Assembly (NCBI GenBank): GCA_018027755.1
Contig: GCA_018027755.1_4098.1
DNA: 64,000 nt
Direction: 5' to 3' (one strand)
Source: a phage
Part shown: positions 39,960-54,592 of the stretch, piece by piece
Layout of the letters: the number at the start of each line of letters is the position of its first letter
How positions within the stretch are numbered: position 1 is the stretch's first letter
Translations under genes and position numbers: made by a program
Notes under the pieces: model-generated
What the model was told of the DNA's origin: nothing
Seen by the model: only the letters and a program-made list of their open reading frames with translations
Database searches by the model: none

Positions 39960-41093
39960 TTAAGGTTTATTTTTATAATTAATTTCTACATAGTTACGTT
40001 GTGTTCCAGTATATCCTGGAACATTCCCTATATTTCCATTACCTGCACCAAACAGACGTTCTCCGACTGCAAAATATGTCCCATAGAAACAACCATCAAA
40101 CACAGGAACATCATTATAATTTGATATGTAATTATCCATTGAATCCATTCTAGTGTATGCAGTCAGAGTTACATTTGTACCTATACCATATGCACCATAA
40201 GGGTTAGTACCAGCAACATAATACCCAGTGGGTGTACATATTACTGGTGAATTTGCCCCTGATCTCGTGTGGATAAATCTAAATGTACCTTCAGGTACTG
40301 GTGCTTCTTTACTGAATAATGTTGTAGCTACTACTGGGTAATCAATACCATAACTATTACCACTCAACCACGTTTTACCATCACTATCTTTGAATAATGA
40401 ACAGGATTGTGTGCATCCGAACAGATTCAAATTGGTTACATTTGGAAATTTACTAATTTGTGTATATACCAGAACTGTGGTTGCGGCAGCACTACCAAGT
40501 TGTCCACGACCATTATCACCCGCACTGTACATGTACCCATCGGTCTTTAATATTATACTAGCGTTTCCTAAAATATCAAAATCAACAACATCCGTTTGTG
40601 TTAATGTAGCTATAGGATAACGAAAATTCACTGCCTCACCAGTACCAAATTGACAATTGGTGTTTACCCCACATCCATATAAGTTGCCGTTTTGCATTAA
40701 TATAAACAAACCTGTTGTCATTTTAATTTTCTTAATATTAAGAATATCTATATCTTGGAATATGTGTGTTACATTTACAAATGTGGTTGAGTTAACAGTA
40801 CTTGAACCATAATAAGAACCGTTCCCGCTACCAAAGAATTCATCGCCTTTTCTGTACATTGCACATAGACTGCCACCCCATACATCATCAACTCCAGTGT
40901 CAATTTGAATAACTGAAGTAACACTAGTTGTTGCACCAGTGCCAAGTTCACCACCTGAATTGAATCCAAAACCATACAAATCTCCACTTTCGGTGAGCAC
41001 CAAAACACTGTTATTGGTTGTGCATGAAATCTTTTTGATATTATTAGATGGTCTTTTATTTCCGTACTTAACCATTCTTGCAAAAGGTAACAT
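39960..41093 (-). CDS. RCC1-like beta-propeller repeat protein, MLPF-family paralog (377 aa)
   Basis: MLPFARMVKYGN; RCC1-type motifs YGCGVNTNCQFGTGEA and YSAGDNGRGQLGSAA. Confidence 0.8.
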   Translation of the reverse strand: MLPFARMVKYGNKRPSNNIKKISCTTNNSVLVLTESGDLYGFGFNSGGELGTGATTSVTSVIQIDTGVDDVWGGSLCAMYRKGDEFFGSGNGSYYGSSTVNSTTFVNVTHIFQDIDILNIKKIKMTTGLFILMQNGNLYGCGVNTNCQFGTGEAVNFRYPIATLTQTDVVDFDILGNASIILKTDGYMYSAGDNGRGQLGSAAATTVLVYTQISKFPNVTNLNLFGCTQSCSLFKDSDGKTWLSGNSYGIDYPVVATTLFSKEAPVPEGTFRFIHTRSGANSPVICTPTGYYVAGTNPYGAYGIGTNVTLTAYTRMDSMDNYISNYNDVPVFDGCFYGTYFAVGERLFGAGNGNIGNVPGYTGTQRNYVEINYKNKP

Positions 41094-41140
41094 GATTTCT
41101 CTCCTTTATCCATTATACTATATTTAATACAAATAAGAAA

Positions 41141-41159
41141 GCCAGTACAGAGTACTGGC
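41141..41159 (-). terminator. junction terminator hairpin
   Basis: gccagtactctgtactggc. Confidence 0.6.
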
Positions 41160-41166
41160 TTTTACA

Positions 41167-42357
41167 TTACAATTGTCTAGGTGTATCCAGAACATATCTA
41201 TTTGTTTTAGGACCACCATCATCATAAGTTCCGGTTGAATATATATTTTTCATATCAGCAGTTAGGAAAGTACGTAACGACCCTCGATATATTTTTATTT
41301 TATCATACATAGAATATGTTATTTCTGACGGCAATGGACATGCAGTAAATTTACCAATGGTAACATTAGAACCAACACCCAATGAACCAGCATAACTACT
41401 CGCATTTAAACCTGTTGCATATACACCAGTACTCGTAACTAGTATACTAGATTGTGCTGGGTATCCAGTATGGATTGAATAATAAGTACCGGGTGGTAAT
41501 GTAGCACTATTATTTCCTAAAACTCCATTAACAGTGCTAGATGTAGTTTTATTTCCCCATGCCCCATTATTAGCGTTACCACCTACTAGGAACTGACGTG
41601 CTCCTGTACTTGGATTCTCTACTAAAGCACTGACAGCACCAAATGAACAAACAGTATATTGTAATGTTTTTGTATATGTGGTACTTGGCTTATACAAAGT
41701 ATATTCATTAAATGGTGTCCATGTGGTACTAGTACTTATGCCAGATGTACTACCACCAATATATAAATTATTTTGTGTATCAAAAAACATTGCACAGTAA
41801 TTTGTTGACTGTATTTGTGCAATATCTACATCTGGTGTTACCGCTTTAACAAATGAACCATCTGATATTTGATAAGTAGTTCCTGTACCATCTGCGAATT
41901 GTCTAGCACTATTCCACCCTGTACTCCATATTGTATTATTATCCATTAAGAAAGTAAACCATGTAGTACCTGCATACATCTGTTTAATTGAAGTACTTGA
42001 ACTTTGTTTGTACAATTTTTCAATATATTGGTTATAACTTAAAAATGATGTAGTACTAGTTTCTAAACCAATATGACTACCATATCCACAATAAAAATAA
42101 TTTAAGTCCTTATCTTGAACTAACAAAGTTCCTTGTGTCATCCAGCAATCTTTGACATTTTCTCTAATTAATGTCCACGACCTTACTGCATTATTATTTC
42201 CTCTACCAAACTTCCCAAAACTATTACTGCCTCGTGCGTATAGTTGACCGTCGGTATAAAGTACAACAACCTCAGTATCAGTTGGTATTATTTTCTTAAT
42301 TTGTAGTGGTACAGGCACAATATTCCCATAATTCATCATTCTTGCAAAAGGTAACAT
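41167..42357 (-). CDS. RCC1-like beta-propeller repeat protein, MLPF-family paralog (396 aa)
   Basis: MLPFARMMNYGN; about 90% identical over the body to the copy at 45612..46802. Confidence 0.8.
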   Translation of the reverse strand: MLPFARMMNYGNIVPVPLQIKKIIPTDTEVVVLYTDGQLYARGSNSFGKFGRGNNNAVRSWTLIRENVKDCWMTQGTLLVQDKDLNYFYCGYGSHIGLETSTTSFLSYNQYIEKLYKQSSSTSIKQMYAGTTWFTFLMDNNTIWSTGWNSARQFADGTGTTYQISDGSFVKAVTPDVDIAQIQSTNYCAMFFDTQNNLYIGGSTSGISTSTTWTPFNEYTLYKPSTTYTKTLQYTVCSFGAVSALVENPSTGARQFLVGGNANNGAWGNKTTSSTVNGVLGNNSATLPPGTYYSIHTGYPAQSSILVTSTGVYATGLNASSYAGSLGVGSNVTIGKFTACPLPSEITYSMYDKIKIYRGSLRTFLTADMKNIYSTGTYDDGGPKTNRYVLDTPRQL

Positions 42358-42403
42358 AATTCCCCTCCTTATTCATTATACTATATTTAATACAAATAAG
42401 AAA

Positions 42404-42422
42404 GCCAGTATCAAGTACTGGC
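42404..42422 (-). terminator. junction terminator hairpin
   Basis: gccagtacttgatactggc. Confidence 0.6.
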
Positions 42423-42436
42423 ATAGTTTTATAGTA

Positions 42437-43546
42437 TCATTTCGGCATTGTAATTGCAGACCATGAGTTCGTGGTAATAGGACCTGGCACATACAAAAAA
42501 GAACCACAAGCATAAATTTGATTATTACCATCAAATACTATACTAAAATGTGCACATGTGTATAATGCTGATTTTTCTGGGTTGTAATTATCTAAAGTTA
42601 GTGTATTGGTGAATCTACTCAAACCACCACCAGAACCATTTCTACCAAATTCACCAGTACTATATATCTTTCCTTCGGTTGTTGCGTACATATTAACATA
42701 TGAAGTTGCACTTGATTTTGATATTTTATGTATCTTACTATCAATAGTAGTGGAGTTAAATGCAAATGGATATACTTGTGTGTTCGTTGTAATACCGTTA
42801 CCAAGTTGACCAACATACTGCCAACCTGCGTTGTATATATTGCTGGCTGAATAAGCAAGAGTACCAGTACTGTTACCACCAAATAGTTTAACACTTGTTA
42901 ACCTTCTTACTAGTGTAGTATACTGTCCGGGACTTACGCCAAGTGAACCATACCCACTGCTCCCGCAACCGAGAAGTTCATTATTTGATGTTAATATTAA
43001 TGTGTTATTCTGTGTACCCAATATATCAAGGACTGTATTAGCTCCGGTATTAACAACTGAAACAAAAGTACTCTGAGCCGTGGAATACCCACCACCGAGT
43101 GAATAGTTACCATTCATGCCTCTACCATAAACAATCGAACCACTAGCATCAACGTAGTGCATTGTATCTGCACCAATTGATATCATTTTAATATTAGATA
43201 TATGTGGAAATGAAGAAGTAACATTCAAACCACCCAACGGAATCATAGTATTTCCTGTGCCTAATTGTGTGGTAACTCCATGCATTATGAATTCTTCACC
43301 CTTGAGATAAAGAATATTGTACGCACCAGCCCATGCATCAGTAACACCTTCTGAAATTAATATCCAAGTATTTCTTGTTGCTGTATTTTCAACGTTTAAC
43401 TGCAAATACGTATTAACCCCACAACCATAAAGTGAGCCATCGCCATAGAGGACGTACAAATTATCAAGACCGCACAGTACTTTCTTTATCTTTGGAGCTT
43501 CAGGTGCAATATTTCCGTACTTAACCATTCTTGCAAAAGGTAACAT
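42437..43546 (-). CDS. RCC1-like beta-propeller repeat protein, MLPF-family paralog
   Basis: True start taken at MLPFARMVKYGN (43546) after AGGAG; only ~8 nt after the upstream gene's stop. Confidence 0.75.
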   Translation of the reverse strand: MLPFARMVKYGNIAPEAPKIKKVLCGLDNLYVLYGDGSLYGCGVNTYLQLNVENTATRNTWILISEGVTDAWAGAYNILYLKGEEFIMHGVTTQLGTGNTMIPLGGLNVTSSFPHISNIKMISIGADTMHYVDASGSIVYGRGMNGNYSLGGGYSTAQSTFVSVVNTGANTVLDILGTQNNTLILTSNNELLGCGSSGYGSLGVSPGQYTTLVRRLTSVKLFGGNSTGTLAYSASNIYNAGWQYVGQLGNGITTNTQVYPFAFNSTTIDSKIHKISKSSATSYVNMYATTEGKIYSTGEFGRNGSGGGLSRFTNTLTLDNYNPEKSALYTCAHFSIVFDGNNQIYACGSFLYVPGPITTNSWSAITMPK

Positions 43547-43554
43547 ATTCACTC

Positions 43555-44730
43555 CTATTCTGGTAAAATCATTTTCTTCATTTTAACTTGTTGTGTACCT
43601 GGACTCTGTTCCTGAAACATAGACCCGTTACCACACCAGTACACCTCATTAGTACCCACTAACGCGTATAACACACCAGAACCACCTTGTACTGAAAATG
43701 CATTAACATCTGGTGCAACATCCATATCCTCATATTGTACCTGGTGGTAATAAGATCTTTCTGATGCAGTAGTAACAGGCCAACCAAGAGGAACACCACT
43801 ACCACATGTATAAAGTTTACCATTCTGTGTCATTGCCATTATAAAATAATTCAAACTGTGATTGTTCATCGACCCAGCATCTGGTATAATACCACTAATT
43901 GCAGGAGTGGTACTAAATGGACTCATGATAATAGTAGTGTCGCCATACCCTATTCCTAAACAATAATCAGTGTTTTTTCCAGCAGTATATACATTAATCT
44001 TATTTCTATTGGATGTAAGTACTGAAGTGGTTTCAGGAGTACATGAAATACCAATAACTGTTCCAGATATATCAGTACTTACCGTAAATGTCGAAAGTTT
44101 AGAAGAACCTGACCCTAAGTTGTAACTTGCGTTATTCCCACATCTGTAGTATTGATTATTTTTAACATAATGGAAAGCATCCCCAGCCGTTGTTCCCGCA
44201 ATTATAGTAACTCCAGTAGCAATCTGAATTGGCGTTGTTTTTCTACCAGTAACACCCAATGCACCTCCTGTATTACGCCCAATCCCATATAAGTCCCCAT
44301 TACTTAACAAAATCAATAACGCACCATTTGATGCAGTAGTTTCAGTAGCAGCTATATCTACTACTGTAGTAAGTGCTGGTATTGTAGACAATAAAGATGT
44401 GATATTAGTCCATCCAGGAACTGGTGATGCAGATACACCGACATAACCCATTTGACCAGCTAAGTAAAATTCTCCGTCAGTCGTAAGTATAATTGTTGCT
44501 GCAAAGAAGCACCAAACATTAGAAACTTTATATGGACACTGTACCCACCCATTTTGCACATACGCAGTGCTATTATTTCCTAGCATATAGTGTGCACCAT
44601 TTCCACGTAGATATAAGTTACCACTATCAAATAACATACCCATATGTGATGGAGATGTACTTATCTTCATAACACCTGAAGGTGCTGGAACTCTGTTTCC
44701 GTACTTAACCATTCTTGCAAAAGGTAACAT
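43555..44730 (-). CDS. RCC1-like beta-propeller repeat protein, MLPF-family paralog
   Basis: Start at MLPFARMVKYGN (44730); the track's MNKGGN extension is the RBS read as codons. Confidence 0.75.
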   Translation of the reverse strand: MLPFARMVKYGNRVPAPSGVMKISTSPSHMGMLFDSGNLYLRGNGAHYMLGNNSTAYVQNGWVQCPYKVSNVWCFFAATIILTTDGEFYLAGQMGYVGVSASPVPGWTNITSLLSTIPALTTVVDIAATETTASNGALLILLSNGDLYGIGRNTGGALGVTGRKTTPIQIATGVTIIAGTTAGDAFHYVKNNQYYRCGNNASYNLGSGSSKLSTFTVSTDISGTVIGISCTPETTSVLTSNRNKINVYTAGKNTDYCLGIGYGDTTIIMSPFSTTPAISGIIPDAGSMNNHSLNYFIMAMTQNGKLYTCGSGVPLGWPVTTASERSYYHQVQYEDMDVAPDVNAFSVQGGSGVLYALVGTNEVYWCGNGSMFQEQSPGTQQVKMKKMILPE

Positions 44731-44775
44731 ATTTCCTCCTTTATTCATTATACTATATTTAATACAAAAAGAAAT

Positions 44776-44794
44776 GCCAGTATCAAGTACTGGC
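44776..44794 (-). terminator. junction terminator hairpin
   Basis: gccagtacttgatactggc. Confidence 0.6.
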
Positions 44795-44801
44795 CTATAT
44801 T

Positions 44802-45539
44802 TTAGACTGAATTGTTAGGATAATATCTCCCACGTCCCCATATTATTCGCACAGCACCACCACCAGCAGCCGTATAAGAAAAATTATCCCATATACTACC
44901 ACCACCACCATACATCTTACCAGCACCACCACTACCAGCACCACCATTATATGAACCATCGTATCTACCGCCAATACCATTAGCACCTTGAACAATGATA
45001 CCAGTACCACCACCCGTACCAATGAACGAGGTATTATAGAATGCACCACCACCACCGCCGCCGCCAGCACCATTTTCACCAGTGATTGCATCTCCGTTAC
45101 CACCTTTACCAGTGTAGCCACCAGCACCACCACCAATGACTGCACCACCACTTACACCAGCGTTGCCCCCATTACCACCACCATCATTAATAGCGTTAGC
45201 AGCTTTCCCACCTAGTCCACCAACCCTATATTCACCAGTGAAGCTAACACATAGTTTTTCAGTTCCACGATATAAACCGTTTTCAACTGCTGTAGTAGTG
45301 TTGGGATGTGTAAGAGAAACACTTAAGTACTCACCACTAGTAACCGGAATATTATTACGCCACGATAAGCCGCCGCCAGCACCACGTTGACCACCCGGCG
45401 AAATAACACATACTGATATTTCGGTAACGCTAGCAGGAACTGTAAATTGTGTTGTTCCTATTGTCGTGATTAATTGTTCACCATGTGGCTTATATTCAAT
45501 TTCATTCCCGTACTTAATCATTCTTCCAAAAGGTAACAT
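44802..45539 (-). CDS. glycine-rich MLPF-family protein (245 aa)
   Basis: MLPFGRMIKYGN followed by long poly-Gly runs (GGNGGNAGVSGGAVIGGGAGGYTGKGGNG...); no Gly-X-Y periodicity. Confidence 0.7.
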   Translation of the reverse strand: MLPFGRMIKYGNEIEYKPHGEQLITTIGTTQFTVPASVTEISVCVISPGGQRGAGGGLSWRNNIPVTSGEYLSVSLTHPNTTTAVENGLYRGTEKLCVSFTGEYRVGGLGGKAANAINDGGGNGGNAGVSGGAVIGGGAGGYTGKGGNGDAITGENGAGGGGGGGAFYNTSFIGTGGGTGIIVQGANGIGGRYDGSYNGGAGSGGAGKMYGGGGSIWDNFSYTAAGGGAVRIIWGRGRYYPNNSV

Positions 45540-45586
45540 AATTCCCTCCTTTATTCATTATAATATATTTAATACAAAAAAGAAAA

Positions 45587-45605
45587 GCCAGTACAAAGTA
45601 CTGGC
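45587..45605 (-). terminator. junction terminator hairpin
   Basis: gccagtactttgtactggc. Confidence 0.6.
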
Positions 45606-45611
45606 ATTATA

Positions 45612-46802
45612 TTATAACTGTCTTGGAGTATCCAGTACATATCTATTTGTACGAGGACCACCATCATCATCAGTTCCTGTTGAATATATATTTTTCATAT
45701 CAGCAGTTAGGAAAGTACGATACGAACCGCGATATATTTTAATTTTATCATACATAGAATATGTTATTTCTGACGGCAATGGACATGCAGTAAATTTACC
45801 AATGGTAACATTAGAACCAACACCCAATGTGCCAGCATAACTACTCGCATTTAAACCAGTTGCATATACACCTGCACTCGTAACTAGTATACTAGATTGT
45901 GTTGGGTATCCAGTATGAATTGAATACAAAGTACCGGGTGGTAAGGTTGTACTATTATTTCCTAAAACTCCATTAACAGTGCTAGATGTAGTTTTATTTC
46001 CCCATGCTCCATTATTAGCTAATCCACCAACTAGAAACTGACGTGCTCCTGTATTTGGATTCTCCACCAAAGCACTGACTGAACCCATTGAGCATCCAGT
46101 GTATTGTAACGTTTTTGTGTATGTGGTACTTGGCTGATATAAAGTATATTCATTATATAAAGTCCATGTAGTGCTGGAACTTATACCGGATGTACCACCA
46201 CCAATATATAAATTATTTTGTGTATCAAAAAACATTGCACAGCTATTTGTTGACATTATTTGTGCAATATCAACATCTGGTGTTACAGCTTTAACAAATG
46301 AACCATCGGTTATTTGTTGAGTTTTTCCAGTACCATCAGCGAATTGTTTAGCCCCACTCCACCCAGTACTCCATATTGTATTATTATCCATTAAGAAAGT
46401 AAACCATGTAGTACCTGCATACATCTGTTTAATTGAAGTACTTGAACTTTGTTTGTACAATTTTTCAATATATTGGTTATAACTTAAAAATGATGTAGTA
46501 CTAGTTTCTAAACCAATATAACCACCATAGCCACAATAAAAATAATTTAAGTCCTTATCTTGTACTAACAAAGTTCCTTCTGACATCCAACAATCGTTAA
46601 CGTTTTCTCTAATTAATGTCCATGTTCTTAATGCAGTGTTGTTTCCTCTCCCAAACTTCCCAAAACTATTATTGCCTCGTGCGTATAGTTGACCATCAGT
46701 ATAAAGTACAACAACATCACTATTGATTGGTATTATTTTCTTAATTTGAAGAGGCTCAGGTGTAATATTTCCATAATCAAACATTCTAACAAAAGGTAAC
46801 AT
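45612..46802 (-). CDS. RCC1-like beta-propeller repeat protein, MLPF-family paralog
   Basis: Start at MLPFVRMFDYGN (46802); near-duplicate of 41167..42357. Confidence 0.8.
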   Translation of the reverse strand: MLPFVRMFDYGNITPEPLQIKKIIPINSDVVVLYTDGQLYARGNNSFGKFGRGNNTALRTWTLIRENVNDCWMSEGTLLVQDKDLNYFYCGYGGYIGLETSTTSFLSYNQYIEKLYKQSSSTSIKQMYAGTTWFTFLMDNNTIWSTGWSGAKQFADGTGKTQQITDGSFVKAVTPDVDIAQIMSTNSCAMFFDTQNNLYIGGGTSGISSSTTWTLYNEYTLYQPSTTYTKTLQYTGCSMGSVSALVENPNTGARQFLVGGLANNGAWGNKTTSSTVNGVLGNNSTTLPPGTLYSIHTGYPTQSSILVTSAGVYATGLNASSYAGTLGVGSNVTIGKFTACPLPSEITYSMYDKIKIYRGSYRTFLTADMKNIYSTGTDDDGGPRTNRYVLDTPRQL

Positions 46803-46848
46803 ATTTCCTCCTTTATTCATTATACTATATTTAATACAAAAAAGAAAA

Positions 46849-46867
46849 GCCAGTATCAAGTACTGGC
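46849..46867 (-). terminator. junction terminator hairpin
   Basis: gccagtacttgatactggc. Confidence 0.6.
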
Positions 46868-46873
46868 CTATAT

Positions 46874-48043
46874 TTAAACTGGCGAATCTAATATAAATTC
46901 TAAACTACTAATGCCACCATATGTGACATCTGTTCCCGTGCTATATACAAAATTACCATCAGTTATATAAGTTCGGTTATAACTACCTGCCATCTGTGAC
47001 TTACTATAATCAAACCCATCAGGTACGATTGCTTTGGTATATACTAATGCATTAGTAGATGTACCAATACCTAACATACCAGCTTGTGTAGATTGATTGT
47101 AGCCGCAACAATATATACCATCTGTTGTAGCAATAACTTGGTTATAATATGAAGTATTGTTAGCAATGCTTACTACATCACCAGGTGGCATTAGTGATGC
47201 TGTTTGTACCTCAAATGCTCTATAATCTTTGAGAGAACCATCTTTCCCATCTGCTTGTGCACCAAATATTCTTGAACCACCATTTGCGATGATAGTTTTA
47301 CCAGTGGGATCAGTGCCTATTGCCATTGCCATTGAAGTACCATTATTCACATAGTACTTTATATTAATTGTATTACTTAAGCTGGTAGGAGCACCATAAT
47401 ATATATTATATAACTTACTTCCTGAACTTGTAACTGCATTGACTCTTCCTGTATAAAATAACCATCCTTGGTTTGTAACATAACCGTGCATTAAATTACT
47501 TGCAAACAATTTAACAGGTAATTGATTTGCTGCGGTAGGAACAGTACTTTTGACGAATCTACCAGAAACATGGTTAATTGTTGTCCCATCACCCAACTGA
47601 CCATCCGACCCTACTCCAGTACTCCATATTGTTTGGTCTGATAGTAACACACTTGTAGTCTGATAACTAACGGCTATATCTAATATTGGTAATGTTAATG
47701 TATTGAATATAGGCATAGCAGATGTCCATATTGATACTCCTGACCCTTTCATACCAACAGTTGTTGAACTTCCACTGTACCATATTTCATTATTGCTTTT
47801 CTTAACAACTATCGACGTGGCTCCCATCCAAAAATCTTCAACACCAGAAGTACTAAAAGTCCATGTAGTAACAGTATTTTTGTGACCTAAACCCAAAATA
47901 CCATATGCATTATCACCACGCACATATAAATCACCACTGTTTGTTAAAACAGCAACATTATAGTTGTTAGCAAGTATTTTTTTAATATTTGGTTTAGCAG
48001 GTGCAATATTCCCGTAATCAAACAATCTCACAAAAGGTAACAT
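46874..48043 (-). CDS. RCC1-like beta-propeller repeat protein, MLPF-family paralog
   Basis: Start at MLPFVRLFDYGN (48043); motifs YVRGDNAYGILGLG and WSTGVGSDGQLGDG. Confidence 0.8.
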   Translation of the reverse strand: MLPFVRLFDYGNIAPAKPNIKKILANNYNVAVLTNSGDLYVRGDNAYGILGLGHKNTVTTWTFSTSGVEDFWMGATSIVVKKSNNEIWYSGSSTTVGMKGSGVSIWTSAMPIFNTLTLPILDIAVSYQTTSVLLSDQTIWSTGVGSDGQLGDGTTINHVSGRFVKSTVPTAANQLPVKLFASNLMHGYVTNQGWLFYTGRVNAVTSSGSKLYNIYYGAPTSLSNTINIKYYVNNGTSMAMAIGTDPTGKTIIANGGSRIFGAQADGKDGSLKDYRAFEVQTASLMPPGDVVSIANNTSYYNQVIATTDGIYCCGYNQSTQAGMLGIGTSTNALVYTKAIVPDGFDYSKSQMAGSYNRTYITDGNFVYSTGTDVTYGGISSLEFILDSPV

Positions 48044-48088
48044 AATTCCTCCTTTATTCATTATACTATATTTACCCCAAAAAGAAAT

Positions 48089-48108
48089 GCCAGTACTTGA
48101 GTACTGGC
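48089..48108 (-). terminator. junction terminator hairpin
   Basis: gccagtactcaagtactggc. Confidence 0.6.
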
Positions 48109-48114
48109 ATTATG

Positions 48115-49224
48115 TTATTTTGGTAAATCAATTTTAGTAAAGACTGCAACATCTGCACTTGCACCTGGAATGGCGTAATACGATCCAGTACTATATACAT
48201 TCCCGTCTTTGGTTAATAATGATGTTAATCCGTCACTAAAAGCAACATCACTAATCTCACTAACTTCTACAGGTAATTGTAAATTAGCAGCACTATAGAT
48301 AGCACCCGTTTGAGAATTGTTTAATCCCAAACCACGGTTTCCCCCAATACCTTTCTGATATGCACTAGTTAATATAATTTGCGTAGCCGTGCTTGTTGCC
48401 TCTGAATTTGTCATAAACAAAGGTGAATTATTAGGTAAAGTACTTACAGGAACTGCTTTGAATGTAGTTGAATCTGAACTAAGAAAGTTTGGAGTTGTAC
48501 CACATGTGAAATATGATGTACCATTATAGTAATTGAGTGTATGTCCACCAATAGCTGCATCTATTACACCAGAACTACGCAGTCCCCAAATGTTAACTTG
48601 TGTTCTGTTCCCTGTGCCATGTAATCCACGGTCATTCCACCCTGAACTATATAACTTATTATCTATGCTAATATACATACTATCATTAGGAGTAGACATA
48701 ACTTTACGCACATTAGAAGCACATAGTGTTAATGTATATATTGATGAAGAACCAATCCCCAATACACCACGGTATCCATTAGCCCCAGCACCATAGAGTA
48801 CTGAACTTGAACTGAGTACAAATATTACACCACCATTGCATACAATATTAGCAATTTGATTCACAGGAATTGTATTTGTAAACCACTCCGTTCTATCAAC
48901 TAATGTAGTACTGTAAGAAGTTGTTGATGATGATGTGAACCAAAATGTTTCACCTGATGTCCATATCGTATTGTCATTTTTAATAATAACAAGTGTTCGT
49001 CCTCCAGTGAAAAAATTAGAAACATCTGCACTTACTAATGTCCAAGAAGATACCGTGTTTTTATTACCATTTCCAGATTCACCACCTTGATTTCTGCCTA
49101 TGTAATACAATTCATGTGAATCAGTCAATACGAATTGACCTTGAGTAGAAGCACCAACTTTAATTATATTTTTAGGACCAGAGGTAATATTCCCATAATC
49201 AAATAGTCTTACAAAAGGTAACAT
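48115..49224 (-). CDS. RCC1-like beta-propeller repeat protein, MLPF-family paralog
   Basis: Start at MLPFVRLFDYGN (49224) after AGGAGG; ~8 nt after the upstream gene's stop. Confidence 0.75.
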   Translation of the reverse strand: MLPFVRLFDYGNITSGPKNIIKVGASTQGQFVLTDSHELYYIGRNQGGESGNGNKNTVSSWTLVSADVSNFFTGGRTLVIIKNDNTIWTSGETFWFTSSSTTSYSTTLVDRTEWFTNTIPVNQIANIVCNGGVIFVLSSSSVLYGAGANGYRGVLGIGSSSIYTLTLCASNVRKVMSTPNDSMYISIDNKLYSSGWNDRGLHGTGNRTQVNIWGLRSSGVIDAAIGGHTLNYYNGTSYFTCGTTPNFLSSDSTTFKAVPVSTLPNNSPLFMTNSEATSTATQIILTSAYQKGIGGNRGLGLNNSQTGAIYSAANLQLPVEVSEISDVAFSDGLTSLLTKDGNVYSTGSYYAIPGASADVAVFTKIDLPK

Positions 49225-49232
49225 AATTCCTC

Positions 49233-50435
49233 CTATTGTTGCCATAACTGCGTTGGCATTAATGTTAGTGTAGTAATACTATAAGTGCCATCAGGCAATC
49301 TACCACCATTACCATTCCAGCCACCACATGCATATAATTTATAATCTTTAGTAATTATTATGGTTCTGCTCCAATCTTTAGATGCCATAAGAACATTGTC
49401 ATAACCACCACTTATTGCATTAAGATTAAAAATATTCCAAGTCCTAACTAATGTATTAGTTCCATTACCTTCTTGACCGTATCCGTTAGCACCACTACTT
49501 CTAACATATGGTGCGTATTGTGCCATAGGTGCACCAATTGATGCATTTCCCATATTACTTGGACAAATAAAAGTACTGTACTTACTTACATCAACCGTGA
49601 CCGATGTGTTCCTAATTGGTGTTAGCTGATTTACCGATGTAGTCGTACCATTACCAGCTTGTCCAGTACTGTTAGCCCCGCTATAATATACAGGCCCACC
49701 AGTAGTAAACCACCAAGTAACATCGTATGTAGTACTAATATGTTCGACATCACTCATCACATATTTGTTCAAATATATCATAGAACTAGCACCACAACCA
49801 CTTTCACCGAAGTTATCCTTACCACAAAACCATGCCTTTTTATTTGATTTAATATAGTGCGTTCCTTGTAATGAACATGCCATATGTGTAACTTCACCCA
49901 TATTAGTCATAACTGTTAGTGTAGGTATGGAATTTTGATTACCAGACCCACATTCACCATTGGTATTTCTTCCACACGCAATTACTCTACCATCGGTTAA
50001 TAATATTCTAGTACTTTCACCTATATATACACTCTTGATCATATTAGCCATAACACCAATTTTATTAAATGAAGCAGTAACATCAGTCCATGTTCTCAAA
50101 TAACCATTAACAGGTGTTGCATCTCCATAATCAGAAAATGCACCAACCGACCCAGTGTAGTATATTTTATTATCCAAATCAATCATCAATGAACCTTGAA
50201 CACCAAGCCAAAAGGCTGCACATCGCGTTGCAAGTACTGTAAATGACGCAACTGCTGCTGAATTCCCAAGACCAAATTGATAAAAGTTATTACTACCATA
50301 ACCATATAAAGTATTAGTTGGGCTATGTAGATACATACAGTTTGTATAATGTTGTTGTAAAACATCTGAGAACTCTACAGGTTCTGGACCTGGTGCAATA
50401 TTTGCGTACTTAACCATTCGTGCAAAAGGTAACAT
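49233..50435 (-). CDS. RCC1-like beta-propeller repeat protein, MLPF-family paralog (400 aa)
   Basis: MLPFARMVKYAN; motifs YGYGSNNFYQFGLGN and YSGANSTGQAGNGTT. Confidence 0.8.
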   Translation of the reverse strand: MLPFARMVKYANIAPGPEPVEFSDVLQQHYTNCMYLHSPTNTLYGYGSNNFYQFGLGNSAAVASFTVLATRCAAFWLGVQGSLMIDLDNKIYYTGSVGAFSDYGDATPVNGYLRTWTDVTASFNKIGVMANMIKSVYIGESTRILLTDGRVIACGRNTNGECGSGNQNSIPTLTVMTNMGEVTHMACSLQGTHYIKSNKKAWFCGKDNFGESGCGASSMIYLNKYVMSDVEHISTTYDVTWWFTTGGPVYYSGANSTGQAGNGTTTSVNQLTPIRNTSVTVDVSKYSTFICPSNMGNASIGAPMAQYAPYVRSSGANGYGQEGNGTNTLVRTWNIFNLNAISGGYDNVLMASKDWSRTIIITKDYKLYACGGWNGNGGRLPDGTYSITTLTLMPTQLWQQ

Positions 50436-50481
50436 ATTTCCCTCCTTTATTCATTATACTATATTTAATACAAAAAGAAAT

Positions 50482-50500
50482 GCCAGTATCAAGTACTGGC
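50482..50500 (-). terminator. junction terminator hairpin
   Basis: gccagtacttgatactggc. Confidence 0.6.
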
Positions 50501-50507
50501 ATAGTAT

Positions 50508-51635
50508 TCAAAAAGGTAAATCAATTTGCTTAGTAATAATAGTATCTAACGGTATTGAACACAATGAGAAATTCTTTCCACCCGTATTTTTAGGATTATA
50601 TCCATTCATCCATACATTATTACCTTCGTAAAATGTATTCCAGTATAAAGACCCACTATATCGTGTATTCGAATTGAACGATGTAAAATTGAATTCTTGA
50701 AATGCTGTAAAATATGGAAGGGAACTTGAACTACTTCCCGTAAATGGGGTATGCCCAGTTGCTATTAGTTTGTTTGTATCTGCATTAATTAAAAATACAA
50801 CACTAGTCGAATAGTCCAACGAATCAGGATGATATATATTACTCATATCACCTATAGTAAAACCAACATCAAAAACTTTACTATGTGCACCACTACCAGC
50901 AAAAGTAGTTCCAGTTGCATATATTTTATTATCAGATGTTATCATTACAAAACCAACACCAGAAACAAAACTGCATTTTATATCATAAGATATATCATCA
51001 AACAACGGAACAAATGTGGTTGCATCACCCGATGTTGCTTTAACTTGAAAGCTGTTATTTGAACCTGAACCATATACAGTTCCATCGTTTTTAATCTTAA
51101 ACAATGTATCGCCAAGGTAACCGCCAAATATATTATCCACATTAGTGTCAAGTACAGTCCACGCTGAAACATAATTTTTATGTCCTAAACCTAATGCACC
51201 ACTTCGATTCCATCCTCTTCCATAAAGTGTTCCGTCTTTCATTAATATAAATGCTGTATAACCACATAACATTTTTTTAATTTGGGTAACATCTATACCA
51301 GTGAAATACACAGCCCAGTCAGTATATCCTTGTTGGAAAGTATTAGAATTCGTGAATGCATATGTTGAACCTGAACCATATATTTTATCACCTTTAATAA
51401 CAACGGAAAACGATCCTAACCATAAGTCATCAACTTCAGTTGTGATTTGTTGAACTGCTCCTAACGATACAAACTTTGTACTTAAACCCGCATTATAGTT
51501 TGAATCTTCACCGTGTGCATATACAGTGCCATCTTGCATTAGAAACATTTCAAGAGTGTAACTAACAACACTTTTCTTTATATTATTAACTTCGATTATA
51601 TTCCCATAATCAAACATTCTAACAAAAGGTAACAT
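50508..51635 (-). CDS. MLPF-family paralog (375 aa), Gly/Ser/Thr/Asn/Tyr-rich
   Basis: MLPFVRMFDYGN; weaker RCC1-like motifs. Confidence 0.7.
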   Translation of the reverse strand: MLPFVRMFDYGNIIEVNNIKKSVVSYTLEMFLMQDGTVYAHGEDSNYNAGLSTKFVSLGAVQQITTEVDDLWLGSFSVVIKGDKIYGSGSTYAFTNSNTFQQGYTDWAVYFTGIDVTQIKKMLCGYTAFILMKDGTLYGRGWNRSGALGLGHKNYVSAWTVLDTNVDNIFGGYLGDTLFKIKNDGTVYGSGSNNSFQVKATSGDATTFVPLFDDISYDIKCSFVSGVGFVMITSDNKIYATGTTFAGSGAHSKVFDVGFTIGDMSNIYHPDSLDYSTSVVFLINADTNKLIATGHTPFTGSSSSSLPYFTAFQEFNFTSFNSNTRYSGSLYWNTFYEGNNVWMNGYNPKNTGGKNFSLCSIPLDTIITKQIDLPF

Positions 51636-51707
51636 AATTCCCTCCTTTATTCATTATACTTTATTTAATACAAATAAGAATTCCTGTATCGAGTACTGGC
51701 ATTCAAT

Positions 51708-52856
51708 TTATTGTAAAAAGGACATATCTACTTCTGTATAACTAAGAATGTTTTGACCAGCAATTCCACCCATTACTACTATTGCATACCCACAATAATA
51801 TAATTTCCCAGTGTCCGTAAGTATAAGTGAACCAGAAGGTGTTCTTACCAAATTACACGAACTATTAAAAGAAGTATACGAAGGAGTATAGGAGTACTGA
51901 TTAATATTATTACCAACACCTAATTGACCACCCCTATTCGAACCAGATGCATAAAGTACTTCATCTGCTTTGACAATATGTGATGCCATGTTAGCAACAC
52001 ATGCATATACACCATATACCCCTGTACTCAATAATGTAGGAGTCTTGTATTGAATATCAGTACTAGTAGATGTTCCACCTGTGCCAAATTCATTACCATA
52101 TTGTGCTCCGTACTGCTTCCCACATGCGTACAAATTATTATCCGATTTGATAAAAAATGTACTCTGATAACTTACATCAAAATCTATAACATCCGAAGAA
52201 ATCATCGTTACCCCAGTAATCGAAGTTTGATTACCAGTACCCAACTGGTAGTAATAGTTAAAACCACAACCCCATAAAGTATTATCTTCTCGCAAATAAA
52301 TGTTACCAACAGCCTTTTTAACAGATGTTATAGTACTGACCTTCTTGAATGTATTAAATGAATCAATGTTAGTACCATCTCCAAAGGAGGATATGTTCGA
52401 TGCGTTATTAGCACCACAACAATATAATGTCCCATCCTTCAGTACTAAATTTACCTTCATATCATTAAAACTGCTCATGTACTCAATATCAGATACACTA
52501 ATACCACCTGATGTTATCCACGTAGTACAGTCCGTCCATAACGTCTTCCTATCAGTTACCCCAGTAAATGCCTTCGTGTTACCAGTGATAAACACTTTAC
52601 CAGTACCCTTTTCTTCATACAATTGACAATCACTACTGTTATCTTCCAATAAAACCCTCTGTACATTCTCTGCACAAAGAATAAATTTACTCGAAGCTAC
52701 TCCTGTACCAGTACCCCAATTCGTCGCAGAAGATGCATACAACTTGTGTGTTAGTGTATCATGCAAATACATAGAACCACTAGAATATATTTTAAAACGC
52801 CCTTCTTTCTCAGGTATAATATTCCCATAATCAAACATTCTAACAAAAGGTAACAT
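51708..52856 (-). CDS. MLPF-family paralog, Gly/Ser/Thr/Asn/Tyr-rich
   Basis: Start at MLPFVRMFDYGN (52856); first gene of the minus-strand array. Confidence 0.7.
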   Translation of the reverse strand: MLPFVRMFDYGNIIPEKEGRFKIYSSGSMYLHDTLTHKLYASSATNWGTGTGVASSKFILCAENVQRVLLEDNSSDCQLYEEKGTGKVFITGNTKAFTGVTDRKTLWTDCTTWITSGGISVSDIEYMSSFNDMKVNLVLKDGTLYCCGANNASNISSFGDGTNIDSFNTFKKVSTITSVKKAVGNIYLREDNTLWGCGFNYYYQLGTGNQTSITGVTMISSDVIDFDVSYQSTFFIKSDNNLYACGKQYGAQYGNEFGTGGTSTSTDIQYKTPTLLSTGVYGVYACVANMASHIVKADEVLYASGSNRGGQLGVGNNINQYSYTPSYTSFNSSCNLVRTPSGSLILTDTGKLYYCGYAIVVMGGIAGQNILSYTEVDMSFLQ

Positions 52857-52904
52857 ATTTCCTCCTTTATTCATTATATCATATTTACCCCATAAACAAA
52901 ACCC

Positions 52905-52958: not shown

Positions 52959-53186
52959 ATGACAAATACTCTTAAGTACTACCTCAATACTCTAAATGAA
53001 CTAGAGTACGCGAAGTTTCTCGCGGATAGTTCGTGGCTAATTGAGCTAAAAACACATAACAGTACTGGATGTAACCTAATGCTGAACAATGCACTTGATA
53101 CCCTTGTAGTGAGTATTTTACACAGCAACATCTGCGGGGATAGAAACAAACAATTATCAAAAATCTTAGTACTGCTATCTATATGA
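52959..53186 (+). CDS. small-ORF array member
   Basis: First member; has AAGGAG SD; C-terminal hydrophobic tail. Confidence 0.55.
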   Translation: MTNTLKYYLNTLNELEYAKFLADSSWLIELKTHNSTGCNLMLNNALDTLVVSILHSNICGDRNKQLSKILVLLSI

Positions 53187-53386
53187 ATATCGAACAGTAC
53201 TACATCGATGCACTACCAACAAAAGGTCTACGTGAAAGCCTACTGCATACACAAACTAATTTCAAACACCTCAAACGTAGCCCTAAACTCCTGAACTCGT
53301 ACAGGAATAATAACATAAGAAATGCTTTACAAGGGGTAGAATGTATGCAATACTATTACATCCTTACCCTATTAATCGAGTACTAA
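53183..53386 (+). CDS. small-ORF array member
   Basis: ATGA overlap with previous gene. Confidence 0.55.
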   Translation: MNIEQYYIDALPTKGLRESLLHTQTNFKHLKRSPKLLNSYRNNNIRNALQGVECMQYYYILTLLIEY

Positions 53387-53387
53387 T

Positions 53388-53597
53388 ATGAATACTGAAC
53401 ATAAAGAATTCTACACCAAATACCTTAGCAACGAAGAACAATTGTTTCTAAGGAGTGTATCACCTGTAAGTACCAATACTCAATTCGGTAGAGATTGCTT
53501 TAATAATTGTATACGTAGTACTCTAGAAGCAATCGAATGCAATAACAAAAATATTATGTACTCAGGTTTAATAGGACTAATATATTTCTATGAATAA
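53388..53597 (+). CDS. small-ORF array member
   Basis: MNTEHKEFY...LIGLIYFYE; near-paralog of 56340. Confidence 0.6.
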   Translation: MNTEHKEFYTKYLSNEEQLFLRSVSPVSTNTQFGRDCFNNCIRSTLEAIECNNKNIMYSGLIGLIYFYE

Positions 53598-53784
53598 TCA
53601 TAAAGATTTCTATTGTAGTAAACTACCCAAACAAGAACAGCTATCATTCTCTTTAGCACCACCTATGAGAAAGGATAATCTGTATTATAATTACGATTTC
53701 AGGATGGTGACACGTTATGCAATAGAACATCAGTTCCCTGAAACTAAGTACCGCTCTATCCTGAACCTCATCTTTAAGTTCTAA
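53590..53784 (+). CDS. small-ORF array member
   Basis: MNNHKDFY...LNLIFKF. Confidence 0.55.
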   Translation: MNNHKDFYCSKLPKQEQLSFSLAPPMRKDNLYYNYDFRMVTRYAIEHQFPETKYRSILNLIFKF

Positions 53785-53836
53785 AAGGTACACCAGGGAC
53801 CGAGTACTTTAATATAGTAAGGCTAATTACATTATA

Positions 53837-54022
53837 ATGAATCATATAAGCTACTACTACCAACAACTATCCGACAGAGACAAGTACAGTCACAACTCCC
53901 ATGTGTGGTACTACAAACGCGGCAGTATAAGAGACAAACAACATTACTTCTGTATTTCTATTAAAGAAGCACTGACAACTAAGTACACGTACCGAGCAGT
54001 ACTTAAACTAATCTCTATTTGA
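53837..54022 (+). CDS. small-ORF array member (..VLKLISI subfamily)
   Basis: Conserved C-terminus shared with 54031, 54225 and 54413. Confidence 0.55.
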   Translation: MNHISYYYQQLSDRDKYSHNSHVWYYKRGSIRDKQHYFCISIKEALTTKYTYRAVLKLISI

Positions 54023-54030
54023 GGTAATAT

Positions 54031-54216
54031 ATGAATACATTTGAGTACTATACCAATAAACTATCTATGCCTGAAAGATCTCATCTCTATGTGTGGAGAA
54101 ATGCGTATAAAAGCGGCAATAAACTTATACAAAGAAATTCCCTTACAGTGTGTACAAATTTAATTAAAGCAGAGTACCGCACATATATTGAAGTACTGAA
54201 GCTGATAGCAATCTAA
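54031..54216 (+). CDS. small-ORF array member (..VLKLIAI subfamily)
   Basis: ORF in track. Confidence 0.55.
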   Translation: MNTFEYYTNKLSMPERSHLYVWRNAYKSGNKLIQRNSLTVCTNLIKAEYRTYIEVLKLIAI

Positions 54217-54224
54217 GGTACTCT

Positions 54225-54404
54225 ATGCAAGAATTCTATATCTATAACCTCCAGCACAAAGATAGATACAACTATAATAAATTCCAAAGGTACTACACAG
54301 TCGGGAACAAAAGAGATAAAAAACGATACTTTCTATCATGTACAGTAGAAGCACAAAACGAAAAGTACACGTACAGAGAAGTACTGAAACTCATCTCTAT
54401 GTAA
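54225..54404 (+). CDS. small-ORF array member (59 aa)
   Basis: Hand-translated MQEFYIYNLQ...REVLKLISM; below the track cutoff. Confidence 0.5.
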   Translation: MQEFYIYNLQHKDRYNYNKFQRYYTVGNKRDKKRYFLSCTVEAQNEKYTYREVLKLISM

Positions 54405-54412
54405 GGAATAAT

Positions 54413-54592
54413 ATGCAAGAATACTATATAGAACACATAAGCATTAAAGACCGTTTCATGTACGACACCTTCGTGAAGTACTACAACCTGGCAACTAACA
54501 GTACTAAAAATATTAATCTCAATAGCTGCATTCATCACGCACTAACAAAAGATAATCCCTTCAGGGAAATCCTCGCACTAGCATCTGTATAA
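54413..54592 (+). CDS. small-ORF array member
   Basis: Track ORF 54338..54592 trimmed to the family-type start MQEYYIEH. Confidence 0.5.
   Translation: MQEYYIEHISIKDRFMYDTFVKYYNLATNSTKNINLNSCIHHALTKDNPFREILALASV

Follow-up and report, generated by a model that had tools for sequence, protein, structure and literature searches.

Introduction

In an ordinary translationally coupled bicistronic operon, a short gap separates the stop codon of the first gene from the start codon of the second, the Shine-Dalgarno sequence of the second gene overlaps that stop, and no terminator or promoter lies between the two. Composite intergenic elements have been described in T4-type phages under the name PeSL (Arbiol et al. 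2010, PMC2839356; Comeau et al. 2014, PMC4122927): short units of a terminator stem-loop and a promoter, repeated between non-essential variable genes, which flank small early ORFans and serve as homology patches for gene insertion, deletion and replacement among related phages. The internal-protein (IP) loci of T-even phages (Repoila et al. 1994), as far as they are recounted in PMC2839356, are polymorphic loci for small, basic, virion-associated proteins, otherwise unrelated or highly diverged, with a short conserved N-terminal sequence in common, whose genes have conserved promoter/stem-loop flanks thought to confine shuffling to the locus.

The stretch of phage DNA analysed here (64,000 nucleotides; the window) belongs to an Asteriusvirus-type jumbo coliphage with 121Q, PBECO4 and G17 among its relatives. 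The RCC1-like 'DNA condensation protein' arrays of 121Q, PBECO4, G17 and phAPEC6 (PMC7247149) belong to the same family and the same locus as the array of the window; in the literature consulted on Asteriusvirus arrays the paralogue array is noted, and the cassette, the N-terminal tag, the tight junctions and the partner swapping reported below are not described.

Array proteins and cassette junctions

The array (38262..52891, i.e. 38.3-52.9 kb, minus strand, as are all features below unless stated), delimited from starts, stops, Pfam, phrog_4219, AlphaFold and Foldseek results, consists of ~13 paralogous genes with the common N-terminus MLPFxRMxxYGN, made up of 11 genes for RCC1-like beta-propellers, one for a Gly-rich protein of 245 aa and, at the distal end, two decayed remnants. 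The gene family matches phrog_4219, and its proteins score up to 35.8 bits with PF00415 (RCC1, cut-off 21.7), up to 43.5 bits with PF13540 (RCC1_2, cut-off 22) and 65-111 bits with PF25390 (RLD), the latter under its 150-bit cut-off. A seven-bladed propeller was predicted by AlphaFold (pTM 0.84), and in Foldseek the model of an array protein aligned with the RCC1-like domains of UVR8, RPGR and HERC2 at a TM of ~0.8. Judged from these profiles and this model, the array proteins are RCC1-like beta-propellers; the product names 'DNA condensation protein' and 'regulator of chromosome condensation', which would imply Ran-GEF or chromatin-condensation activity, come purely from annotation transfer.

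With a length of ~370-450 aa, the array proteins show a pairwise identity of only 21-33%. Their N-terminal tag comprises 12 residues, of which M1, L2, P3, F4, R6, Y10 and N12 are invariant across the 11 paralogues; it is also carried by the non-RCC1 Gly-rich protein, and residues 1-12 are unstructured in the AlphaFold model. The array thus resembles the IP loci, as these are portrayed in PMC2839356, in its polymorphism, in the shared N-terminus of diverged virion-associated proteins and in its conserved flanks, but its products are beta-propellers of far other size than the small basic IP proteins, and a search for a protease-cleavage motif past the tag found Glu within residues 15-21 in only about half of the paralogues and no clear sign of a conserved motif.

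Ten array junctions are 70-79 nt long and each holds a cassette, in which a GC hairpin with a U-run is followed by TAAATATAGTATAAT, then AAAGGAGG and then the ATG. The hairpin is built of the arms GCCAGTAC-loop-GTACTGGC, with energies of -10.4 to -16.1 kcal/mol apart from one degenerate copy of -5.4, and has the form of an intrinsic terminator, with stems of 7-11 bp including 4-5 GC pairs, followed by TTTCTTTTT. Only cassette junctions have a hairpin in the range -10 to -16 kcal/mol together with a U-run, and in the GenBank record of G17 ARNold terminators are placed at every cassette junction and at no tight one. The element TAAATATAGTATAAT is found 13 times in the window, where 1.15 occurrences would be expected. 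Eleven copies, with 0-2 mismatches, sit at array-gene 5' ends; the remaining two, with two mismatches each, lie outside the array on the plus strand. A weight matrix built from the promoter-like element of the cassettes gives 17.5-34.3 bits at 11 unit starts. Cassettes are on average 84% identical in pairwise comparison, and this conservation continues into the genes, with 85% identity over coding nt 1-36 falling to 41% over nt 37-72 and to ~32-36% further in.

The conserved TATAAT/TATAGT motif makes the element a putative promoter. A perfect TATAAT occurs, but without a -35 box at 16-18 nt, and no convincing -35 was found in the cassettes, the sole candidate being CTGGCA (4/6), which in some copies only stands in the hairpin arm, 17 nt ahead of TATAGT; the region has no more matches to a sigma-70-type consensus than chance predicts (84 vs 84.3 expected). 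Since the array genes encode virion proteins, late expression is expected. In every array, the first gene is preceded by the promoter-like part without a hairpin and the last gene is followed by a hairpin without the promoter consensus, just as one would expect if the former were a promoter module and the latter a terminator module.

The cassette shares with PeSL a composite, repeated motif between variable genes and its place as a crossover point among related phages. Its stem, GCCAGTAC/GTACTGGC, is unrelated in sequence to the GGGG/CCCC stem of PeSL (PMC2839356), thus lacking the polyG/polyC relationship, and it contains neither a consensus sigma-70 early promoter, with no -35 box, nor an UP element. 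It flanks paralogous virion-associated genes of ~1.1 kb rather than small early ORFans and, unlike PeSL, belongs to a conserved block that includes the ribosome-binding site and the first 12 codons. The cassette is therefore an analogue of PeSL and not a member, with promoter and terminator activities that are putative, as any mini-circle formation would be.

One reading of these hairpins is that they are weak attenuators and that the whole array is read through as a long polycistronic RNA, in which a missing cassette would be of little effect. The stems are indeed short (7-11 bp, -10 to -16 kcal/mol, one degenerate at -5.4), and comparable stem-loops of PeSL have been termed terminators or attenuators (PMC2839356). 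On the other hand, 78 junctions of related arrays strictly keep both hairpin and U-run between genes whose proteins diverge down to ~25% identity, which argues that hairpin and U-run are functional, and the conserved promoter-like element directly behind each hairpin would be redundant in one long operon. Read-through of the whole array is consequently considered unlikely.

The two tight junctions

Two of the 12 junctions in the window carry no cassette, a direct sequence observation and not a statistical one. In pair A, the first gene (43555..44730, 391 aa, ending in ...KMILPE) has the 3' end ...TTACCAGAA TAG, and the junction (43547..43557) consists of the TAG at 43557-43555 and the spacer GAGTGAAT at 43554-43547, followed at 43546, in a frame other than that of the TAG, by the ATG of the second gene (42437..43546, 369 aa, ending in ...AITMPK). 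The Shine-Dalgarno sequence AGGAG at 43556-43552 overlaps the stop (TAGGAG). In pair B, the first gene (49233..50435, 400 aa, ending in ...TQLWQQ) ends with ...TGGCAACAA TAG, and the junction (49225..49235) comprises the TAG at 49235-49233 and the spacer GAGGAATT at 49232-49225 before the ATG at 49224, which lies 11 nt from the T of the TAG and is therefore out of frame; the second gene (48115..49224) encodes 369 aa ending in ...KIDLPK, and its AGGAGG at 49234-49229 again overlaps the TAG. The two pairs are unrelated to each other as pairs. Both second starts are fixed by the conserved family start MLPF...; a mechanical ORF list extends the two reading frames to the upstream alternative starts GTG 43552 and ATG 49245.

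The first-pass annotation had placed the downstream starts ~8 nt past the upstream stops at 43546-43555 and 49224-49233. These ranges take in the final base of the stop codon and the initial base of the start codon, which leaves a gap of exactly 8 nt in both. Its statement that only a ribosome-binding site is present, with no hairpin or promoter-like element, was borne out as well: RNA folding gave no stable structure at either junction (z = +1.74 at A, less structured than shuffles, and -0.12 at B), and a search for a cassette-type promoter inside the upstream genes found none, with best weight-matrix scores of -7.2 and -4.0 bits. The same strand, the TAG, 8 nt and ATG, and the TAGGAG(G) correspond to the layout of a translationally coupled operon, without an intervening hairpin or cassette-type promoter. 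The pairs thus match an ordinary coupled operon in all these features and differ in one: such an operon has a fixed partner, whereas the second gene here is exchangeable among paralogues (see below).

Each pair lies between two cassettes. Pair A is preceded by a cassette at 44731..44801 (hairpin 44794-44776, -10.4 kcal/mol; promoter-like element 44765-44744), its putative promoter, and followed by one at 42358..42436 with a hairpin at 42422-42404 (-11.7 kcal/mol). The putative promoter of pair B belongs to the cassette 50436..50507 (hairpin 50502-50480, -12.0 kcal/mol; promoter-like element 50471-50450, then AAAGGAGG), and past the pair lies the cassette 48044..48114, whose hairpin at 48111-48086 has 11 bp, -16.1 kcal/mol and a U-run. 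Because the upstream ORFs have no terminator and no promoter following them, and because their TAG is embedded in a Shine-Dalgarno sequence, 43546..42437 and 49224..48115 would most likely be transcribed only as second cistrons of ~2.35-kb mRNAs, starting at the cassettes at ~44750 and ~50455 and with predicted 3' ends at the hairpins 42422-42404 and 48111-48086. Their translation would rely on their own Shine-Dalgarno sequence and/or on termination-reinitiation, so that the two genes of a pair are possibly translationally coupled. Elsewhere the array would be made of self-contained units of promoter-like element, Shine-Dalgarno sequence, ORF with the 12-residue tag and intrinsic terminator.

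Genes of this kind are expressed in a relative. Mass spectrometry found both gp003 and gp009 of phAPEC6 in virions (PMC7247149, Table 1), data which speak to virion association and not to location or N-terminal processing, and by their coordinates both genes sit behind tight junctions; genes without a cassette of their own are therefore expressed. The second gene of pair A, 42437..43546, is the orthologue of gp009 with 99.5% nucleotide identity.

Comparison across related arrays

Among 109 junctions surveyed in ten related arrays, 78 have a cassette and 19 are tight (8-12 nt). All tight junctions stem from six upstream gene types, just one of which is mixed (3 tight, 1 cassette), whereas seven downstream gene types are found in both states; tightness thus goes with the type of the upstream gene and not with the downstream partner, which varies. 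The stop codon is TAG at 10/19 tight junctions vs 3/78 cassette junctions. The junction behind the 50435-type gene is tight in all seven non-redundant surveyed arrays having this gene type, and the pair 50435->49224 is found as one contiguous match in 21/36 records of related phages. No further phage in the database shows the adjacency 44730->43546: behind the 44730-type gene, G17 has the identical 8-nt junction and a different gene, UB a tight junction of 9 nt and yet another gene, and phAPEC6 a cassette. Conversely, the 43546-type gene stands behind a cassette in ECO103 4-12-1, EC22.5-2 and TH47 and behind a different tight junction in 121Q and phAPEC6, and the 49224-type gene has a full cassette ahead of it in 121Q, phAPEC6 and UB, of which 121Q and UB have no 50435-type gene.

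Gene order differs among the relatives, with homology switching inside the cassette and the 5'-coding block, and homology breakpoints between relatives fall in the conserved opening 36 nt of the coding sequence. Compared between close orthologues, these 36 nt show twice the divergence of the remaining gene (6.5% vs 3.2%); in the example of the window and WPEC3, 6/36 differences are found in the block vs 4/1167 beyond. Since breakpoints lie in these 36 nt and tightness follows the upstream gene type, recombination in the block of cassette and N-terminal codons appears to shuffle the array, as at the PeSL cassettes of T4 and the T-even IP loci. Reshuffling would proceed by homologous recombination in a conserved block of ~110 nt that comprises the cassette and coding nt 1-36. 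At junctions lacking the cassette, the crossovers would take place in the 36-nt coding block, which would make the second cistron interchangeable, and whichever paralogue recombines in behind a tight 3' end would become the second cistron, the missing cassette being a heritable trait of the 3' end of particular gene types. Taken as a whole, two bicistronic units among monocistronic ones, together with shuffling of the array by recombination, is the probable reading of the locus. The earlier description of the array as a mix of solo units and two-gene operons gains support from the sequence anatomy and from the layout kept in independent genomes, with the refinement that the pairs are not fixed and that the tight state goes with the 3' end of certain gene types.

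That description had left it between junction elements lost and never inserted. Were the tight state ancestral, cassettes would be mobile regulatory elements that spread later and did not get as far as these junctions; they are far more conserved than the genes they flank, as expected of recently spread or homogenised elements, and PeSL-type cassettes have been proposed to be mobile (PMC2839356). Yet AATAGGAGGAATT, the ribosome-binding segment of the tight junctions, agrees with AATAAAGGAGGAATT at the 3' end of the cassette, a promoter-like remnant, TTTAAATATAATATAAAGGAGG, is kept in a tight junction of G17, one gene type exists in both states, and a whole unit duplicated in tandem would bring its cassette along. 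An ancestral tight state is thus regarded as quite improbable, and loss of the cassette is favoured, indirectly through the G17 remnant and the gene type of mixed state, though not proven.

Unrecognised promoters in the 3' part of the upstream genes, from which the downstream genes would be transcribed on their own so that the pairs were no operons, are very unlikely. In their favour, the promoter class of the array is itself putative, and two candidates exist, namely a weak match to the cassette core, TATAGTATTAC (two mismatches), within coding sequence ~50 nt upstream of the 49224 start, and a generic TATAAT at 43856-43835. The matrix scores in the upstream genes (-7.2 and -4.0 bits) nevertheless contrast with those at real unit starts (17.5-34.3 bits), nothing comparable to TATAGTATTAC is found near 43546, and with no terminator the upstream transcript would still enter the downstream gene. 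Functional partnerships held together by selection (e.g. hetero-oligomers in need of equimolar, coupled synthesis) would agree with the contiguity of 50435->49224 in 21/36 related genomes and with a stop-overlapping Shine-Dalgarno geometry typical of translational coupling, but are hardly to be expected of pairs that are unrelated as pairs, when the 44730-type gene has three different paralogues behind it (window, G17, UB), both second genes also follow full cassettes or other upstream genes, and 121Q and UB keep the 49224-type gene without the 50435-type one.

The layout of the tight pairs is that of an ordinary two-gene operon and is met again in related phages; the finding itself is ordinary and its context of moderate interest. 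New are the proportion of tight junctions (19/109), the upstream-type rule, the adjacency counts, the 36-nt breakpoints, the proposed shuffling and the virion orthologues of second cistrons.

Leaky hairpins would make the contrast between solo units and operons merely quantitative. The cassette at 51636..51707, between the genes 52856..51708 and 51635..50508, holds the degenerate hairpin GCCAGTACTCGATACAGGA (-5.4 kcal/mol) with an interrupted U-run and may be a leaky third junction.

Array members and their shared N-terminal tag

The tandem array extends over ~38.3-52.9 kb on the minus strand, in a region 80-99% identical, in mosaic fashion, to 121Q, PBECO4, G17, phAPEC6, WPEC3 and other Asteriusvirus jumbo coliphages. 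A motif scan of the window located 13 ORFs starting with MLPF[AVG]R[ML]xxYGN, every one on the minus strand, and a decayed 14th start (MLPFRRII) lies farther downstream; the minus-strand ORF at 7671-8825, which adjoins a similar-looking palindrome, was rejected as a member since it is not in the family. Eleven members of 369-449 aa are RCC1-like beta-propellers: the array propellers exceed the Pfam threshold for RCC1/RCC1_2 and match phrog_4219 (E = 1e-81 to 1e-89), and the AlphaFold model of a propeller (pTM 0.84) resembles the RCC1-like domains of UVR8, RPGR and HERC2 (Foldseek TM ~0.8). Annotators should be wary of 'DNA condensation protein' and 'regulator of chromosome condensation', since both names are no more than transferred annotation. 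Pairwise identity between paralogues is 21-33%, with the exception of one pair at 89% protein identity (45612-46802 and 41167-42357, minus strand). Given the distance of all other pairs, this likeness points, at the level of sequence, to a recent duplication or to separate acquisition of one unit in this array.

The 245-aa Gly-rich member (44802-45539, minus strand) has only its first ~12-25 residues in common with the RCC1-like paralogues. It was without match in a Pfam search and matches phrog_4474, a family whose function is not known; its gene, of type ...YPNNSV, is kept in 121Q, G17, UB, phAPEC6 and ECO103. As this protein shares nothing else with the propellers, it shows the N-terminal tag (MLPFARMVKYGN; invariant peptide MLPFxRMxxYGN) to be a separable module. 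Tag residues 1-12 are disordered in the model (pLDDT < 50), and this predicted disorder, together with attachment of the tag to a non-propeller protein, suggests that the tag may be a docking or packaging signal common to the array proteins.

Anatomy of the junction cassette

Junctions were delimited by the upstream stop and the conserved ATG. The cassette, the 70-79 nt element found in ten junctions with a mean pairwise identity of 84%, consists in order of the stop codon, 5-15 nt, a hairpin GCCAGTAC-loop-GTACTGGC, a U-run, (T)TGTATTAAATATAGTATAATGAATAAAGGAGGnAAtt and the ATG. Matches to its hairpin core number 31 in the window (1.06 expected), almost all within the array, and those to its promoter-like core 13 (1.15 expected), 11 of them at array gene starts. 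RNA folding of the cassette junctions gave hairpins of -10.4 to -16.1 kcal/mol, and a promoter-like weight matrix scored 17.5-34.3 bits at 11 unit starts. First genes of arrays carry the promoter-like part without the hairpin and the last array junction carries the hairpin without the promoter consensus, a distribution that supports the assignment of promoter and terminator modules; terminators are also annotated in the G17 GenBank record at exactly the cassette junctions. Rfam returned nothing above threshold, and two sub-threshold matches were taken as chance.

The cassette has a perfect TATAAT and no -35 box. MEME-type promoter predictions for CBB and GAP32, which are distant relatives, yielded an ATAAATA late motif, to which the cassette TTAAATA is an approximate match only. 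In the cassettes with a CTGGCA hairpin arm (50486-50458, 48093-48065 and 44780-44752, minus strand) this hexamer stands 17 nt upstream of TATAGT, a 9/12 sigma-70-like match overlapping the terminator, and with TATAAT 5 nt beyond there are two alternative -10 candidates. In predicted cassette folds (e.g. 44731-44801 and 46803-46873, minus strand), the ribosome-binding site AAAGGAGGAAA is base-paired with the terminator U-run UUUCUUUUU that precedes it; if real, this pairing would occlude the site in read-through transcripts and leave it free in transcripts from the cassette promoter, and it could equally be trivial pyrimidine-purine complementarity. The cassette at 51707-51636 has a degenerate hairpin (-5.4 kcal/mol), and genes 52856..51708 and 51635..50508 may therefore form a leaky third pair.

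Two junctions without the cassette

The first-pass annotation had reported two gene pairs separated by ~8 nt with only a ribosome-binding site. The spacing proved to be exactly 8 nt from stop to start at both sites, with a Shine-Dalgarno sequence overlapping the TAG: gaaTAG-GAGTGAAT-atg at 43557-43546 (minus strand) in pair A, whose genes start at 44730 and 43546, and caaTAG-GAGGAATT-atg at 49235-49224 (minus strand) in pair B, whose genes start at 50435 and 49224. The reported absence of a hairpin or promoter-like element at these tight junctions also held. Folding revealed no stable RNA structure (z = +1.74 and -0.12), no cassette-type promoter was present within the two upstream genes (best weight-matrix scores -7.2 and -4.0 bits), and no terminator was detected at either junction, the only consensus matches being weak, at chance level and deep in the genes (49711-49693 and 44335-44320). 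The proposed mixture of solo units and two-gene operons is thus a reasonable reading of the sequence. Read-through or suppression of the TAG, giving a fusion protein, was rejected because a distance of 11 nt between the T of TAG and the ATG puts the two out of frame, the read-through frame stopping after 1 extra codon (43557) or 7 (49235).

Mechanical ORF calls extend the second cistrons to in-frame starts on the minus strand, GTG 43552 and ATG 49245, that overlap the upstream gene. Family alignment places the true start at the MLPF methionine, and N-terminal extensions like MNKGGNMLPF... represent a translated ribosome-binding site. Tight junctions thus mislead ORF callers, a caution for annotators, and public-record annotations may contain such wrong upstream starts.

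Junction state in related phages

Probes of 1.2 kb centred on each tight junction found pair B contiguous in 21/36 related genomes at 86-99.8% identity. The adjacency of pair A occurs in no related genome, records matching the left or the right probe half only, and an exact match is likewise absent from IMG/VR, which for this family has only phage 121Q. In the arrays of ten phages, every family start was then located, the proteins were clustered into types (named by their C-terminal residues) and the junctions were classified. These ten non-redundant arrays contain 109 junctions, 78 of them with the cassette and 19 tight (8-12 nt), the other 12 being array ends or degenerate copies; at least one tight junction is present in every array, and in G17 three of them link a four-gene chain. 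Tight junctions are an ordinary operon-type arrangement recurring throughout the genus, and are of little import alone. TAG is the stop codon at 10/19 tight junctions versus 3/78 cassette junctions, an excess explained by TAGGAG doubling as stop codon and ribosome-binding site.

The type of the upstream gene predicts the junction state almost perfectly: ...TQLWQQ (upstream in pair B, 50435..49233), ...RKWCSI and ...PGALLN are always followed by a tight junction (7/7, 5/5 and 2/2), as are two singletons, and ...KMILPE (upstream in pair A, 44730..43555) in 3/4 cases. The type of the downstream gene does not predict it. The ...KIDLPK gene (49224..48115 in pair B) follows a tight junction in 6 arrays and a cassette in 3 (121Q, phAPEC6, UB), while the ...AITMPK gene (43546..42437 in pair A) occurs at 98-99% nucleotide identity in three contexts, behind the ...KMILPE gene in the window, behind a cassette in ECO103 4-12-1 and TH47, and, in 121Q and phAPEC6, behind a tight junction other than that of pair A. 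In G17 the ...KMILPE gene ends in the identical TAG-GAGTGAAT junction, with another paralogue behind it.

Origin of the tight junctions

It had been proposed that the junction elements were lost or never inserted at these sites. The comparison of sequences favours loss, short of proof, and makes an arrangement that never had the element the less favoured part of that proposal. The tight junctions carry a ribosome-binding-site segment that matches the cassette's 3' end, one tight junction of G17 keeps a promoter-like remnant, TTTAAATATAATATAAAGGAGG, inside the upstream coding end, one gene type exists in both states, and duplication of a unit would copy its cassette. An AATGCCA...TGGCA sequence at the 3' end of gene 50435..49233 was dropped as a hairpin remnant because ATGCCA encodes the usual Met-Pro of the family C-terminus, the bases in between being unlike the hairpin. 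Descent of both pairs from one two-gene block was rejected, since neither pair is a mutual best match: the upstream genes match each other at 62 bits (~28% identity) and the downstream genes at 47-48 bits, in each case no closer than to other paralogues.

Exchange in the cassette and the first 12 codons

In alignments, homology switches inside the first ~36 coding nt. These 36 nt are 85% identical among paralogues, compared with 41% for the next 36 nt and ~32-36% for the remainder; between close orthologues (125 pairs) the same block is 6.5% divergent versus 3.2% in the rest of the gene, and differences between the window and WPEC3 number 6/36 in the block versus 4/1167 in the rest for one gene, and 9/36 versus 32/1314 for another. 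A segment that is most conserved in paralogues and least in orthologues is the signature of repeated exchange, consistent with the cassette and first 12 codons acting as a recombination substrate. At junctions lacking the cassette this substrate shrinks to the 36-nt coding block, and the tight junction therefore travels with its upstream gene. Since tightness is tied to the upstream gene and the gene behind it varies, tight junctions are natural markers of an array reshuffled in its conserved promoter/terminator block and first 12 codons. It yields a concrete, testable scheme by which a set of ~10-17 virion-associated beta-propeller proteins is diversified in the jumbo coliphages of phage-therapy research (121Q, PBECO4, phAPEC6 and relatives).

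The closest analogues of the cassette are the PeSL (promoter-early stem-loop) cassettes of T4-type phages, composites of stem-loop and promoter that end and start transcription and act as crossover points in modular shuffling (PMC2839356, PMC4122927). PeSL-like elements of the T-even internal-protein (IP) loci, as cited from Repoila 1994 in PMC2839356, are also close. The array cassette is an analogue and not a member, having no sequence similarity to PeSL and neither a sigma-70 -35 nor a UP element; its neighbours are large paralogous virion genes, whereas those of PeSL are early ORFans, and its conserved block reaches into the shared N-terminal tag. The phAPEC6 paralogue array has already been noted, and no description of the cassette, tag or tight junctions was found in the papers examined on these phages.

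It is tentatively proposed, as a possibility rather than an expectation, that the ~110-nt block of terminator, promoter, ribosome-binding site and codons of the 12-residue tag forms a transferable module for recombination and expression, the tag being a common docking or packaging tag and the tight junctions being units without the 3' half of the module. Were this so, Asteriusviruses could exchange, drop or gain virion-associated binding domains (beta-propellers, Gly-rich protein) as plug-ins, any domain with MLPFxRMxxYGN being delivered to one same site on or in the virion, and loss of the 3' half would force crossovers into the tag-coding 36 nt. Shuffling of the PeSL and IP-locus kind would then have a counterpart among late genes for structural proteins.

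Expression of the paired genes

Two phAPEC6 proteins encoded behind tight junctions, gp003 (4823-5992) and gp009 (11830-12939), were found in purified virions by ESI-MS/MS, as were gp005, gp006, gp007, gp010, gp549 and gp551 of the same array (PMC7247149 Table 1). The gp009 gene is the orthologue of the window gene 43546..42437 (99.5% identity). The products of genes behind tight junctions are thus virion-associated, and lack of the cassette is no bar to expression, which for the array proteins is presumably late. Transcript or promoter maps for Asteriusvirus were not found in the literature, and the statements on transcription made here are all inferred. Pairs A and B would most likely give two bicistronic mRNAs of ~2.35 kb each, running from cassette 44801-44731 to hairpin 42422-42404 and from cassette 50507-50436 to hairpin 48111-48086, respectively, with the second cistron translated via the stop-overlapping Shine-Dalgarno sequence and/or reinitiation.

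Interrupted genes and the neighbouring array

Several array genes are broken. At 38330-38464 (minus strand) stands a remnant of a 389-aa gene of type ...KDMPSA, in which the first 36 codons are followed by the out-of-frame last seven codons (AAGGATATGCCTTCTGCTTAG), a near-complete internal deletion with the upstream cassette and downstream hairpin both kept. The terminal array gene at 37840-38261 (minus strand; MLPFRRIITSSK...) breaks off after 52 codons and falls well short of its length in relatives; its counterparts in 121Q, PBECO4, UB and SD-2_S15 are split at the same place into 74 aa and ~298 aa, which could reflect a shared pseudogene or a frameshift site. The ...RKWCSI gene (G17 16719-17908) stops after 264-269 codons and resumes ~240 nt later in another frame, as an ORF of 133-137 codons ending at the tight junction, in 5/5 phages with that gene, G17 and WPEC3 included. 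A conserved interruption, a pseudogene, recoding or, possibly, an insertion could account for this. In WPEC3 (17029-18208) and three more phages, another array gene ends prematurely at a T-run, after 59 codons (...WFIFF(G/R)), and in several phages a long RCC1-like ORF follows in another frame; homopolymer slippage or sequencing error may be behind the truncation.

A second, divergently oriented array lies at 52959-57121 (plus strand) and comprises ~20 small paralogous ORFs of 59-77 aa with the pattern M(N/H)KE(F/Y)Y...LIYRY, separated by 1-10 nt gaps or overlaps and without cassettes. An unrelated 219-aa ORF (54603-55262) lies among them, and the small ORFs are annotated as hypothetical proteins in WPEC3, G17, 121Q and SD-2_S15.
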